Below are positions 1 through 5,140 of a stretch of DNA of 38,243 nucleotides, one piece after another. Origin of the DNA: a virus. Its lineage: Duplodnaviria > Heunggongvirae > Uroviricota > Caudoviricetes. The translations under genes and the position numbers were made by a program. The first letter of the stretch is position 1; each line of letters opens with the position of its first letter. The DNA lies in the IMG/VR virus record IMGVR_UViG_2721755660_000008, positions 1 through 38,243 of that record; one strand, written 5' to 3'. A model generated the notes under the pieces. That model did not search any database. It was not told where the DNA came from and saw nothing but the letters and a program-made list of their open reading frames with translations.

Positions 1-2133
1 TCACTTAAAAGGAGTGTTTATCCTAACAACTCTCAAATAAACATCTCTTATATTTTCACCTCCATTTGGCCTTAAAATTGTTGCTGAAATAACTCCACTT
101 TGTGAAGCAGATACTGTTGCGTTATATACTAATGAACTATTGAATTGTTGAGCGTGTATTTGCCTTGATGTTGTTTCAATTTGCTCTCCGGCTCTCATCA
201 TAACTGCATGTTCTGAAAAACACCCGCCAGCACCAGTTGTTGTTGTCGCTGTAACCTCAACTCTATAGAAATACATAGCAAGCACACCTGAGTTTACTGA
301 ATTATTTGGAACTGGCACTTGTACGGTTATTGAGACTGGGCCGCTATCAACTCCTGTTGTCTGAGCACACCAGCCAATTTCACCATTCTGAGATATTAAT
401 GTGAATATGCATCGATCTTTTGTCCCAGCGTTTACCTGATACGTTGTTGTATAGGTGGCGCCATAGAAATGCTCTACGGTTATGGCAGTACCGAAGTTCT
501 CTCCCCAACCAGTCCATGAAGGCCAGATACTGGCATTGCTTTTAATGGCTACGCCATTATTGATGCACTTCAGAGACACTTTCCCATTATTACAAGAACT
601 CAAGAGCACAGGGACTCCAGGAATGCTGTTCCTTAGTGTTATCTCAACATCCGGCTGCTCTGCGGTTACCAACATTAATGGCTCGACTGTTCTTGGAACC
701 GTATTGAGCGGTATGTTAATCTCCATGTCACGCACTCGCGTCCTTGTACCGCCACATAGAAATGCGCACACACCACCTACATTAGCAGGAAGATAAAGTC
801 GAACACCTTCAAAAGACAAATCAAAAACATCCGATTGAGAATTTGTGATGATTTGAATAAGGTGTATAGGGCCGTTAACATTTTCTCCCGTAAAATTACT
901 CTTACTGGTGATGTTTCTGTAAATACCACCTGTTCCTGATACTTTTGCCGCAAACACTGGTGTGTCCGTCATGGTGCAAACCAAACCATCAACAACACAC
1001 CCTGTTGACCCCGTGAGTTGTAAAGTTACATTGCAGCCGCCGTATCTGTTAGATAGAGGTTCTCCGAACTCACCACAGTTTGTTATAGAACCACTAGTGT
1101 TATTGATATACATCAGGTGTGACGGACCATACGCACCGAAACTTTCGTCATGCCGCAATGTCCCATACACGTACTCAATATTGCATCCTGCAAAGTTGTT
1201 AATAAGTGCGCATGAATAGTGTGTACAATAGATGTTAGAGAATAGAGAGCCTCTAAAATCACCCTCATAACCAGAAACAAGGAAGTCGTAGCGATTATCA
1301 CTGGTTTCACCGACTGCCATCGCATTAATCAATTTGAAACGATACGCGTTTGAATTCATCCCGATAAAGCCACAGAACGCAGCTTCCCACGGGCGAGTAA
1401 TTCCATAGCGAGTGGTTGTTGTGCCCCCCAAAGGATAGCCGCCTTTATAGACAGCATTAAATCCCATAATGGTCACATCAGGATTCCTGTTCATGAAGAC
1501 CAGAAATCCAGTTTTCTCATGAGTTATTTTAGCACCGTTAAAATCAATATATGCACCAGCGGGAGGAGTGATGACATTTTCCTCATTCATCACCATACGA
1601 TATGTGGAACCTCTCTTCATGAGGCATCTTCCAGTCATAATAGCATTAGTCACCGCCACTGTATCATCAGCTACACCATCTCCAATTGCTCCATATTGCT
1701 CTGGCGTTGCCCAATATGACAAACTATCCGCTACTGTACCAGCCAAGTATCCAATTTTAGTTGCACCATCTTCTTCAGACAGCTCACTTCGAAATTGATC
1801 AGGGTCATACTTCAGCACATTTGGGAATTTGAACTGCTGTGCACCATACGCATCATAAACAGCCATAGAATGGCCTTGCTCAGTTACGAATTTGGCAATC
1901 TGTCCGTTATATACAGGGTAACCAGCGGCGTTAATGATGATTGGTTGCGAAACGGGAACATGAGAGCCGTCTTCGTTCTCTACATAAACCTGAATCTGGT
2001 TTTCTGGATTTACCGGGTCAGTGTCAATTTTACCGATATAAATTTTGCCATTGGCTACGGCTTTAAAAGAACGAGCCATAGTGAAGAGTTGCGAAGGCAT
2101 GCTAACTACAACATTGGCTGTAATGTCTGTCAT
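1..2133 (-). CDS. Tailspike protein: P22 gp9-type N-terminal head-binding domain plus a different beta-helix (pectate-lyase-like) receptor-binding domain
   Basis: ORF 1..2169; N-terminus [11 protein letters not shown]...[10 protein letters not shown] matches P22 tailspike head-binding domain; start placed at Met13 (2133) with GGAG RBS upstream; motif [12 protein letters not shown] typical of beta-helix depolymerases. Confidence 0.9.
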
Positions 2134-2189
2134 TTGATTTGCTCCAGATACAAGAAATCGCCGCAGCATGGCTACGGTGAATTTTGGGC

Positions 2190-2233: not shown

Positions 2234-3163
2234 TCAGTAGTTATGTACTGAAGGAGGTAATTCTTTATTCTTAAGTCTCATCCATGCGGAAAGATTCGCT
2301 GGTCCGTCTGGCTCATTAATATCAACATCTCGTGTGTGGTTTATTAAAACGTCTCTCGCCATTCCGATAACATACGAGAATTCATTACCGTAGTCGTAGC
2401 ATCTGCCGGAATAGTTCGATTGAATTTGTTTTAATGCCGGATACAGTTCGCGGAATAATGCCTGTGAGCGGTTGGCATAATCCCATAGCCATACAAGGCT
2501 GTTTGCTTCTTTTGCAGAAAGCTCGTCGGTTTTCTTCTCTTGTTTGCCGATGAACTCGCCTTCAAGTGGAACTCGAGCTGCAAGTGACAGTGCTTCGGCA
2601 AACTGCTCCTCACTGATTTCTTTGTATGAACACCCAAAATGAGATTTCAGTGACGACCACATGGTGATCATCGCCTTAGCCTGTTTTTCCTTTGGCAGAG
2701 ACTGACCGCGACTCATGACGAGTTGTTTAATGGCTTCCTGCTGTTCAGTGGTGATTTTACCCGGCAACGCCTTTTTAGCTTTGCGTGGGTTAACTACATG
2801 GCCTTTAGTCCAGTACTCGTATAGCACATCGTCACACTCTTCCTGATACTGGATTACCTTGTCGCGGATTTCAGGGCGGACTTTGTTTGGACTGATGGTT
2901 TGCAGCCAGCCAGCAAGTTTGCGAAGTGCCAAACAAATAATCTCACGGCACTGTTCATCACCAGGAAGCTGCATTGTGATTTTCACAATGGAGGTTTTAA
3001 ACCGTTGCTTTATTTTCGTAAACTGTGAAGCCCAATCCATACCCATACCTTCAACGATAGGTTTCATTGGGGTGTACGGCTCACCGTTGTGATTGACGAC
3101 ATAAAGCTCTGCGCCGTGGAATGGCACGTTGATAGTAGATACTGCTGTTGCTATACTTTTCAT
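2234..3163 (-). CDS. ant: Putative antirepressor (Ant-like)
   Basis: 309-aa ORF immediately downstream of an Arc-like RHH gene in the same orientation (P22 immI arrangement arc-ant-gene 9); N-terminal region resembles phage antirepressor N-domains; GAGGAA RBS. Confidence 0.5.
   Translation of the reverse strand: MKSIATAVSTINVPFHGAELYVVNHNGEPYTPMKPIVEGMGMDWASQFTKIKQRFKTSIVKITMQLPGDEQCREIICLALRKLAGWLQTISPNKVRPEIRDKVIQYQEECDDVLYEYWTKGHVVNPRKAKKALPGKITTEQQEAIKQLVMSRGQSLPKEKQAKAMITMWSSLKSHFGCSYKEISEEQFAEALSLAARVPLEGEFIGKQEKKTDELSAKEANSLVWLWDYANRSQALFRELYPALKQIQSNYSGRCYDYGNEFSYVIGMARDVLINHTRDVDINEPDGPANLSAWMRLKNKELPPSVHNY
3129..3157 (+). promoter_or_regulatory. Putative Psar-like promoter inside the 5' end of ant, firing antisense to ant
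   Basis: TTGATA-17 bp-TATACT on plus strand; predicted start about 3163-3165, directly opposite ant start codon and RBS. Confidence 0.45.
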
Positions 3164-3228
3164 GTCAGTTTTTCCTCAAAATTTACTGGCGATTTAAGCC
3201 CGGGCTACTCGCAATAGCTTGGGCTTTA
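3164..3228 (+). ncRNA. Putative Sar-like antisense RNA complementary to the ant translation initiation region
   Basis: Transcript from promoter at 3129-3157 would cover the ant RBS (3164-3180) and end at hairpin AAGCCCGGGCUA...UAGCUUGGGCUUU (3196-3227) followed by U-rich stretch; about 65 nt, like P22 sar. Confidence 0.35.
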
Positions 3229-3229
3229 C

Positions 3230-3376
3230 TCATTCTGGACAAACAATTCCATCCTTAGCTACTGACTCCTTTAGTCTCCTCAATACCTCATTACTGAACG
3301 ACCGATCATCCTTTTTCGCGGACTGCTCCAAAGCCTTTTCCAGCCATTCTGGCATCCTTAATGTCTTAACTTTCAT
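3230..3376 (-). CDS. arc: Arc-like ribbon-helix-helix repressor (48 aa)
   Basis: Hand-translated ORF absent from the 60-aa ORF track: MKVKTLRMPEWLEKALEQSAKKDDRSFSNEVLRRLKESVAKDGIVCPE; beta-strand KTLRMP plus two helices as in P22 Arc; AAGGAG RBS 6 nt upstream of ATG. Confidence 0.65.
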   Translation of the reverse strand: MKVKTLRMPEWLEKALEQSAKKDDRSFSNEVLRRLKESVAKDGIVCPE

Positions 3377-3387
3377 TTTTGCTCCTT

Positions 3388-3435
3388 TGTATGCGGTACG
3401 CATACATAGTATTTAGGTACGCATTGATAGTCAAT
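3388..3435. promoter_or_regulatory. immI-like operator/promoter region: 19-bp palindrome TGTATGCG-gta-CGCATACA (3388-3406), palindrome ATTGA-tag-TCAAT (3423-3435), direct repeat GGTACGCAT x2
   Basis: Perfect inverted repeats in the 104-bp arc/mnt divergent intergenic region. Confidence 0.5.
3406..3434 (-). promoter_or_regulatory. Putative Pant promoter for arc-ant
   Basis: Minus strand TTGACT-17 bp-TACTAT; predicted start falls inside the 19-bp palindrome. Confidence 0.5.
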
Positions 3436-3480
3436 AGATACCTACATATCCTGTGGTAAAAAATTATTCAGGATGCGCCG

Positions 3481-3732
3481 ATGTCTGATCGTAAGTACAA
3501 AAACCCTCAAGTGAATCTGAGGCTTCCTGTAGAGATAAAGGAACGTCTTATTGAACTGGCTGAGGCTAATTCTCGTTCATTAAATGCTGAGATGGTCGCA
3601 GCACTTGAAGCATGGACCGAAAAAAACAAACACATTCAAGCACTAGATCTTGCAACTATAGCATCGCGACTGATAGAGCTTGAGCATGATGTTGAGAAGT
3701 TAAAATGTATGCATGGCAATGGTGAAAAATGA
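3481..3732 (+). CDS. mnt: Mnt-like ribbon-helix-helix repressor (83 aa)
   Basis: N-terminus KNPQVNLRLPVEIKERLIELAEANSRSLNAEMVAALE is an Arc/Mnt-type RHH; same length as P22 Mnt; divergent from arc as in P22 immI. Confidence 0.6.
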   Translation: MSDRKYKNPQVNLRLPVEIKERLIELAEANSRSLNAEMVAALEAWTEKNKHIQALDLATIASRLIELEHDVEKLKCMHGNGEK

Positions 3733-4046
3733 AACGTATCGCTATCCTATTGCTCCTGTGTCTCTCGAGCATAGCTAACGCAGAAACAAAATCAGACGAT
3801 AGCAGTTTTGATGAAATACAAGGCCTCATGATAGCTTCTAAAATGGCTGGTATGTGTGGTGCAATCAAACAAATGGCAATATTCCAAGAATCTACAAACA
3901 TGCCAGGTGGGAATGAATTCTTACAGAGATTCCTTACTACAGAGCAAGCAAGGCTCGGGATGACTCCGCAGCAATTTCTTGAAGCATGTCAGAAATCAAT
4001 CTCTATTTATACCACCTATTACAATATGAGCTCTGAGAAAAAATAG
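3729..4046 (+). CDS. Small secreted (periplasmic) protein of unknown function, 105 aa
   Basis: Start overlaps mnt stop (ATGA); Sec-type signal peptide MKRIAILLLLCLSSIANA; AT-rich codons with several ATA. Confidence 0.6.
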   Translation: MKRIAILLLLCLSSIANAETKSDDSSFDEIQGLMIASKMAGMCGAIKQMAIFQESTNMPGGNEFLQRFLTTEQARLGMTPQQFLEACQKSISIYTTYYNMSSEKK

Positions 4047-4625: not shown

Positions 4626-5045
4626 TTAATCTTGCTTCGTAGAAGGTATAAGAGATGCATTTGCCTCTTTTGGCTTCAATGTATACATCCCACCATTAAA
4701 TGGATCAACAGCAAGCCAACCGATTAACCCACCAAACACAAGGTTTCCACCAATATACCAACCATTAGCATTGGCTTTGATTGGCAGGGTAACTGGTTCG
4801 TACCCATCCTTTTCCATAGTGATCTGGTAGCTCTTTTTGCCAAAATAACTACCATCTGACTTGGCAAGAGTTACTCCTTGTGGAGTCTTGCCTTGCGCAA
4901 CAATCACGCCTGATTCATCTTTTACCTTAAAGCTCGCACCGGAAGGGTTGCTGTTCACTTGCACAAGTTGCGTTTCATCACCAACAATAGTTGCGCACCC
5001 AGATAACATGATAGCGCCAGCAACGACGCTAATAATCCTCTTCAT
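4626..5045 (-). CDS. Lipoprotein of unknown function (possible superinfection exclusion moron)
   Basis: ORF 4626..5057; signal peptide with lipobox LSGC (MKRIISVVAGAIMLSGC); start placed at second Met (5045); located between gp16-like gene and immI region where P22 carries sieA. Confidence 0.65.
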   Translation of the reverse strand: MKRIISVVAGAIMLSGCATIVGDETQLVQVNSNPSGASFKVKDESGVIVAQGKTPQGVTLAKSDGSYFGKKSYQITMEKDGYEPVTLPIKANANGWYIGGNLVFGGLIGWLAVDPFNGGMYTLKPKEANASLIPSTKQD

Positions 5046-5140
5046 ATCAATTTCCATATCTAAAAAACCGGAAACATCCTAATGACAAACCATTCAAATG
5101 TGAAGCACGAGATAAGATCAATCCATCCGTGGACGACTAA

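Follow-up and report, generated by a model that had tools for sequence, protein, structure and literature searches.

Ever since 1987, the sar RNA has belonged to the textbook examples of antisense regulators; sar of phage P22 is represented by Rfam family RF00262, and studies of it include those of Liao et al. (1987), of Wu et al. (1987) and of Schaefer & McClure (1997). The c4 antisense RNA of the immI region of phages P1 and P7 is a small RNA by which translation of an antirepressor operon is blocked through covering of the ribosome-binding site. Like sar, c4 is a small phage RNA directed against antirepressor translation, but no homology exists between the two, and c4, which is encoded ahead of its target on the same strand, is released from the operon transcript by processing and binds via short loop sequences. 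OOP of lambda and a23/paQ are, like sar, short cis-antisense RNAs of lambdoid phages with hairpin terminators. They are unrelated to sar in sequence, possess their own promoters (constitutive or C1/CII-activated) and target the 3' end of cII/c1 or of the Q/23 gene, not an intercistronic ribosome-binding site. The P22 RefSeq record annotates oop and a23.

In P22, sar is described as repressing the translation of Ant by an antisense mechanism (PMC13397905). The role of sar is documented for P22 and assumed in other P22-like phages (PMC2629481, PMC12111858, PMC13397905, PMC3134472). Among the P22-like phages, sar has been annotated or measured in epsilon34 and UAB_Phi20, and P22 sar has been recovered by small-RNA sequencing (PMC2629481, PMC12111858, PMC13397905); epsilon34 is reported to encode Sar (PMC2629481). 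In the published records of CUS-3, SEN22, TL-2011b and S.Kent, sar is unannotated, and in several of them arc is unannotated as well.

The window, by which the whole analysed stretch of 38,243 nt of a P22-like E. coli prophage is meant, was found to contain a complete P22-type immI region, in which mnt, Pmnt/Pant, arc, a 66-nt spacer, ant and then the adjoining tailspike gene follow one another (Table 1). In P22-like phages, immI is situated between the genes for the ejection proteins and that for the tailspike. At its left end, the window has a late region of the P22 type, which is read from the minus strand. Between arc and mnt, the Pant-like and Pmnt-like sites are divergent and overlap (3406-3452), and two palindromes are located there, so that all the parts of an immI region are present and the Pant/Pmnt and O_arc/O_mnt layout of the annotated P22 record is mirrored by the arc-mnt interval of the window. 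Identity to the P22 counterparts by BLASTP was 57% for Ant, 31% for the Arc-like protein and 42% for the N-terminus of the Mnt-like protein; because the latter two values are so low, the operator specificities of Arc and Mnt probably differ from those of P22. The arc-like product matched the Pfam Arc family at 25.1 bits (cut-off 20.4), and an identical 147-nt CDS for this gene is present in RefSeq.

The nearest published phages are CUS-3, with 91% identity across most of the region, and SEN22, with 87.5% identity across the arc-sar part. Among 5,426 complete E. coli genomes, 33 cover at least 80% of the stretch from 3050 to 3500 (451 bp), and the identity is 99.3-99.8% in the 15 listed of these 33; for the E. 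coli strains 702/18 and UMNF18, it is 99.6-99.8%. The sar allele of the window recurs in IMG/VR contigs with 0-1 differences.

Table 1. Features of the immI region of the window and of the predicted sar-like RNA
Feature	Position	Strand	Basis or remark
Tailspike gene	1-2169	-	P22 head-binding domain, Pfam Head_binding 217 bits
ant (antirepressor, 309 aa)	2234-3163	-	Pfam P22_AR_N 152 bits, P22_AR_C 100 bits
ant ATG	3163-3161	-	Identical start annotated by RefSeq in a 99.8% identical E. coli prophage
arc-like repressor gene (48 aa; RBS AAGGAG ahead)	3230-3376	-	Stop codon 3230-3232
mnt-like repressor gene (83 aa)	3481-3732	+	Pfam Arc domain 40.2 bits
Pant-like promoter TTGACT-17-TACTAT	3434 to 3406	-	In operator-like palindrome
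Pmnt-like promoter TTGATA-17-TATCCT	3424-3452	+	In operator-like palindrome
Predicted sar-like antisense RNA, ~67 nt	3164-3230	+	Rfam RF00262, leave-clade-out model R2, fold
Stem-loop I, 6-bp stem (3164-3169 with 3185-3190), 15-nt loop	3164-3190	+	Fold
Anti-SD UCCUC in loop I	3173-3177	+	Opposite ant SD GAGGA
ant mRNA target: SD GAGGA (complement of 3173-3177) and AUG (3163-3161)	3161-3177	-	Sequence
Stem-loop II, 12-bp stem (3196-3207 with 3215-3226), loop CUCGCAA	3196-3226	+	Fold
Psar -35 TTGATA	3129-3134	+	5/6 consensus matches; in ant codons 11-12
Psar -10 TATACT	3152-3157	+	17-nt spacer from -35; in ant codons 3-4
Psar extended -10 TGcTATACT	3149-3157	+	TG 3149-3150; ant codons 3-5 (Ser-Ile-Ala)

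The predicted RNA spans the 66-nt arc-ant spacer in the antisense orientation, with the 5' end beside the ant AUG and the 3' end touching the arc stop codon. The 5' end was placed according to the promoter geometry and the homology to P22, and the 3' end according to the alignment, with a tolerance of about 3 nt on either side. In the original prediction, the RNA was expected to end at a stem-loop in the spacer after about 65 nt; a 12-bp hairpin was indeed found there, and the length was corrected to about 67 nt, from 3164 to about 3230. In the P22 RefSeq record, the sar RNA is annotated at 15021-15090(-), Psar at 15097-15125(-) and the terminator at 15021-15058, while ant begins with its ATG at 15091 and arc ends at 15022, and the geometry of the window agrees with it to the base. 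The likeness to P22 sar in position, orientation and size, which had been proposed from the letters of the window, was therefore borne out almost base for base. The window copy would be a diverged allele of a known element and an ordinary part of a known switch, as judged from its sequence.

A promoter of the form TTGATA-17-TATACT had been predicted on the plus strand in the first codons of ant, and it was located at 3129-3157(+), with an extended -10 element besides. At the sequence level, a promoter of its own, antiparallel to ant, is thus available to the RNA: 10 of 12 hexamer positions match the consensus in addition to the extended -10, and G3164, which directly adjoins the ant start codon, lies 7 nt past the -10 hexamer. 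The -10 hexamer and TG of P22 Psar (TGCTATACT) are identical to those of the window. The -35 hexamer of the window (5/6) is nearer to the consensus than that of P22 (GTGTTA, 3/6), and this exchange is due to the window ant being two codons shorter there. Taken alone, the sequence match of Psar is weak evidence: 0.48 sites with at least 10/12 matches plus TG were expected per shuffled 38-kb window and 1 was observed, and by the consensus scan no enrichment of promoter-like sites was detected in the 2-kb region (3 found versus 3.3 expected). The same scan misses the experimentally defined Psar of P22. The element stands above chance because of its exact position, the homology to P22 Psar and sar, and the conservation and covariation in the relatives.

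The RNA of the window was predicted to fold into two stem-loops at -24 kcal/mol (z = -4.3; none of 200 shuffles was as stable), with all 18 pairs of the two hairpins being standard. With the anti-SD in the 5' loop and a length of 67 nt, the architecture is the same as that of P22 sar. Stem II holds two G-U pairs, its loop comprises 7 nt, and it is followed by the tail UUACUCAUU, which is weakly U-rich and contains no classical U-run. Stem-loop II is presumed, by analogy with P22, to be the sar terminator. It was not flagged in a consensus terminator scan, by which the experimentally defined sar terminator of P22 was likewise missed, and since P22 Psar and the sar terminator both escape such scans, the missing flag is weak counter-evidence. 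In the relatives described below, the 8 nt past stem II contain on average 4.1 T on the sar strand versus 2.7 on the opposite strand.

An alignment with P22 sar had been suggested as a check, and it showed that the box TGCTATACT..TCATGT is identical in both, and the hairpins can be aligned. P22 sar folds into the same two-hairpin shape; its loop I, too, contains an anti-SD, and its 3' hairpin likewise lacks a strong U-run. The sizes are about 67 nt for the window RNA and 68-70 nt for P22 sar, and the sequence identity of the two is 66%. Stem II is one or two pairs shorter in the window (12 bp) than in P22 (14, according to the folds), and loop II measures 7 nt in the window and 4 nt in P22. 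Relative to P22, stem II carries three double compensatory changes (U-G to G-U, A-U to G-C and G-C to A-U), and in stem I there are three of the wobble-preserving kind.

The Rfam model RF00262 was matched by 3164-3230(+) over its whole length (model positions 1-68 of 68) at 31.3 bits, with an E-value of 1.9e-4 in a search of 451 nt, the gathering score being 43. When the whole window was searched with Rfam at gathering thresholds, no match was obtained, and sar appeared only with E-value thresholds. Elsewhere, RF00262 scored 84.6 for CUS-3 and 44.8 for TL-2011b, and eight clearly syntenic alleles, out of 11 tested besides that of the window, scored 29-39, below the gathering score as well. That score serves as a cut-off for annotation and was tuned to alleles of the P22 type. 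To avoid circularity, a covariance model of 12 alleles (R2), from which the window type was left out, was also used, and it matched 3164-3235(+) at 48.8 bits (E 3.3e-8) as the sole significant match on both strands of the 38 kb.

For the analysis of relatives, IMG/VR was scanned with the conserved 18-mer, by which 120 loci were obtained; after removal of six chance matches, 68 distinct 72-nt sequences were left, all of which fold into two hairpins. In plain MAFFT alignments of 39 and of 16 alleles, the 3' arm of stem I was put in the wrong place, and RNAalifold recovered stem II alone from them. MAFFT was replaced by a hand-annotated alignment of 12 sequences and by covariance-model alignments, in which 90 matches were collapsed to 54 distinct rows. 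Among these 54 relatives, 98.8% of the pair cells were standard, a percentage somewhat inflated by the fitting of the alignment to the model, and 9 of 19 pairs were changed on both sides, the double changes being visible in the raw sequences. The observed pairing values were reached by none of 500 shuffles, and partners slid by 1-3 columns paired in 24-47% of the cells. In stem I, all six pairs vary, five of them are changed on both sides, and 98.3% of the cells are paired; in stem II, 99% of the cells are paired.

The two strands were also compared for folding. In all of the 62 alleles compared, the fold of the sar strand was more stable than that of the ant-mRNA strand, with means of -29.3 versus -19.4 kcal/mol (mean gap 9.9 kcal/mol) and values of -24.0 versus -18.4 kcal/mol in the window. 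The advantage of the sar strand comes from the G-U pairs, and a structure that is specific to one strand points to selection on the plus-strand RNA, not on the mRNA leader.

As the -10 element is fixed by construction in a collection made with the 18-mer, the conservation of the promoter was re-tested on 71 further loci, which were retrieved via similarity of the Ant N-terminal domain alone. With the covariance model, at least 20 of these 71 loci proved to contain a sar-like element immediately upstream of ant and antisense to it, in genera including Yersinia, Erwinia, Mangrovibacter, Klebsiella, Proteus, Providencia, Xenorhabdus, Photorhabdus, Mixta, Pectobacterium and others. In 19 of 21 Ant-similarity loci, the predicted RNA 5' end is preceded at a distance of 6-7 nt by the motif TGnTAnnnT, and the -35 hexamers TTGATA, TTGATT or TTGATG were found at 17-nt spacing. 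The information content is highest at the TTG of the -35 and in the extended -10, with hardly any in the spacer; hexamers that are kept while the sequence separating them varies freely mark a promoter and not a conserved peptide. On the basis of their sequences, these loci show a predicted sar-like RNA accompanying ant widely across Enterobacterales; in those few loci that were examined for it, the RNA lies in a full arc-ant cassette.

From sequence anatomy, homology, geometry, structural covariation and strand bias, the element of the window is very probably a functional homologue of P22 sar, that is, the cis-encoded antisense RNA of immI. We infer its transcription, its RNA ends, the termination at hairpin II and the repression from P22. 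According to the mechanism proposed, a sigma-70 promoter with an extended -10, situated in the first 12 codons of ant, would fire against the direction of ant, and transcription would start at G3164, beside the ant AUG. The resulting RNA of about 67 nt would end behind hairpin II, where the arc stop codon lies, and, being encoded in cis, would be perfectly complementary to the entire arc-ant intercistronic leader. Loop I would offer UCCUC to the Shine-Dalgarno sequence GAGGA of ant, and the duplex would hide the ribosome-binding site of ant, so that Ant synthesis would be stopped. Both the Pant transcripts and the read-through of the late operon would be affected, and the translation of arc would be spared.

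It was considered whether Psar works mainly by transcriptional interference, i.e. by collision or blocking of polymerases, with the RNA product being secondary; polymerases coming from Pant (about 235 nt off and convergent) or from a late promoter would then be blocked and ant transcription would be lowered. The convergence of Psar and Pant fits such an arrangement, and with a -35 of 5/6 in place of the 3/6 of P22 GTGTTA, promoter occupancy could be high. Selection on RNA structure, however, cannot be explained in this way: covariation is seen in both helices, 9 pairs having changed in both partners, the structure is specific to the sar strand in all of the 62 alleles owing to its G-U pairs, and the anti-SD sits in a conserved loop. 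Wu et al. 1987 are said to have found that P22 sar acts in trans. Interference as the main mode of action, which is also at variance with the description of P22 sar as a repressor of Ant translation (PMC13397905), is therefore regarded as improbable, although interference could add to the effect of the RNA. Very improbable is a reading in which the hairpins serve in the leader of the ant mRNA, be it as a processing site, as a translational operator or as an attenuator between arc and ant, no functional antisense RNA is made, and the plus-strand promoter is a by-product of conserved N-terminal codons of Ant. The hairpins of any cis-antisense pair exist in complementary form on the mRNA, and the promoter hexamers do fall in coding sequence, but the minus-strand fold is the weaker one in every allele, including that of the window, and the minus-strand version is without a T-rich tail. 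Moreover, the hexamers and TG are kept, the intervening codons being free to vary, and unrelated N-terminal types of Ant have the identical 18-nt TTGCTATACTnnTCATGT. Stem II as a terminator or attenuator on the minus strand was rejected on account of the weaker fold and the lack of a T-rich tail on that strand.

The sub-threshold Rfam score and the identity of only 66% to P22 sar would be in keeping with a sar relic that has decayed and lost its function in a defective prophage. Against it, arc, ant and mnt are all intact, the 18 hairpin pairs are standard without exception, the promoter is nearer to the consensus than that of P22, the allele recurs in IMG/VR contigs, the surrounding 451 bp are covered to at least 80% in the 33 complete E. 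coli genomes, and the related SEN22 allele differs by compensated changes; such a relic is extremely improbable. A plus-strand ORF (3148-3258, 36 aa, TTG start) was also rejected as a coding sequence, since its frame is broken in the relatives by loop indels of 1-3 nt.

The functional homologue of P22 sar that is proposed here adds little in biological terms, the class of element being long known. The window allele and most alleles that are not of the P22 type are overlooked by the Rfam model and RefSeq. In the RefSeq E. coli genomes, sar is not annotated, and the 66-nt arc-ant spacer is left empty. The RNA arm of antirepressor control is thus unseen in many prophages of E. coli and Salmonella, in Stx phages and in other enterobacterial prophages. 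The wide occurrence of the predicted RNA with ant and the mosaic junction at the promoter/start box are of use for the modelling of prophage induction or of antirepressor cross-talk between co-resident prophages.

The alleles were finally compared with one another. The nearest published sar allele is the unannotated copy of SEN22, with 88% identity to that of the window. CUS-3 and TL-2011b have the ant N-terminus and the TTGATA-17-TATACT promoter in common with the window, and in CUS-3, TL-2011b and S.Kent the same promoter is joined to a different RNA body, the homology breaking at the transcription start. The sar alleles are reshuffled at the promoter/start box, which doubles as a mosaic junction. 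A tentative and rather doubtful reading is that the alleles represent immunity specificities at the RNA level, by which ant of incoming phages with the same allele would be silenced and other alleles would be left unaffected. On this reading, the near-consensus Psar would make sar abundant in lysogens, the variants of stem I, the loop and stem II would reflect diversifying selection as in plasmid incompatibility RNAs, and the variants would be shuffled at the conserved 18-nt promoter/start junction. If it is true, sar specificity classes would exist for trans-repression between co-infecting or co-resident phages. At least 10 stem-I variants were counted among the alleles, and cross-allele duplexes were predicted at less than half of the self energy. 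In the same comparison, YYZ-2008 was grouped with the P22-like/lambdoid phages carrying sar alleles.

The 18-nt box TTGCTATACTnnTCATGT serves as a mosaic junction. At least four different bodies of sar, the antisense RNA opposite the ant leader, were found joined to the window-type ant N-terminus together with its TTGATA -35 hexamer, and the homology of the window to TL-2011b and S.Kent ends at about 3166. The loci taken together with this part of the window for the junction were L001, L124, L126, L006, L041, L051, L071 and L087. The coordinates of the box and of the other features are listed below.

Features of the window and of phage YYZ-2008
Feature	Sequence	Position	Strand	Remark
Tailspike	window	1-2169	minus	P22-type head-binding domain, residues 1-113
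18-nt box TTGCTATACTnnTCATGT	window	3146-3166		spans the extended -10 of Psar, the start site and the ATG of ant
Palindrome 1, CTTTGTATGCG/CGCATACATAG	window	3385-3409		at Pant start
Palindrome 2, 18-nt arms	window	3410-3448		across Pant/Pmnt promoters
105-aa ORF	window	3729-4046	plus	overlaps mnt stop codon (ATGA)
143-aa ORF	window	4626-5057	minus	lipobox-like motif LSGC
Arc-like ORF	YYZ-2008	1621-1794	minus	unannotated, upstream of ant
Mnt-like ORF	YYZ-2008	1878-2222	plus	unannotated, upstream of ant

The window ant is itself mosaic, its two parts matching different phages. The C-terminal two-thirds (2234-2925) has about 93% DNA identity to ant of many Stx1/Stx2-converting phages, and the matches of the N-terminal third (2926-3163) are CUS-3 and S.Kent-type phages.

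In Enterobacteria phage YYZ-2008 (L125, NC_011356, region 1480-2222), a Stx-type siphovirus (Pankowvirus), a sar-like element was scored at 42.7 bits by R1, the covariance model of sar-like RNAs, and its promoter reads TTGATT-17-TAAACT. The region amounts to an entire immI cassette sitting among tail genes, of which ant is the sole part annotated in the record. Among the loci retrieved through Ant N-terminal similarity (genome_contigs, L127-L197), sar-like matches adjoin ant homologues in many Enterobacterales genera. The loci from Acinetobacter (L156), Paraburkholderia (L185) and an Armatimonadia MAG (L169) have weaker two-hairpin candidates beside ant, and most of the matches and candidates taken together fall below the Rfam gathering score. 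A second sar-like match lies about 0.8-1.1 kb off in some loci (L159, L142, L136 and L140).

In the window, two palindromes (3385-3448) flank or overlap the Pant/Pmnt hexamers, palindrome 1 at the position of O_mnt and palindrome 2 at that of O_arc in P22. Both are different in sequence from the operators of P22, which fits an identity of 31-42% between the Arc and Mnt homologues and those of P22.

The receptor-binding part of the tailspike appears unlike those of P22, CUS-3 and SEN22, and no match was obtained by Pfam search beyond residue 113 (about 600 residues). The 105-aa ORF, with a signal-peptide-like segment at its N-terminus (MKRIAILLLLCLSSIANA) and no match in the Pfam search, sits at the variable 'ant moron' position, which is taken by orf59a and sieA in P22. 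The single Pfam match of the 143-aa ORF was PEGA, sub-threshold at 17.5 bits versus a cut-off of 20.8; this ORF may encode a moron-borne lipoprotein.
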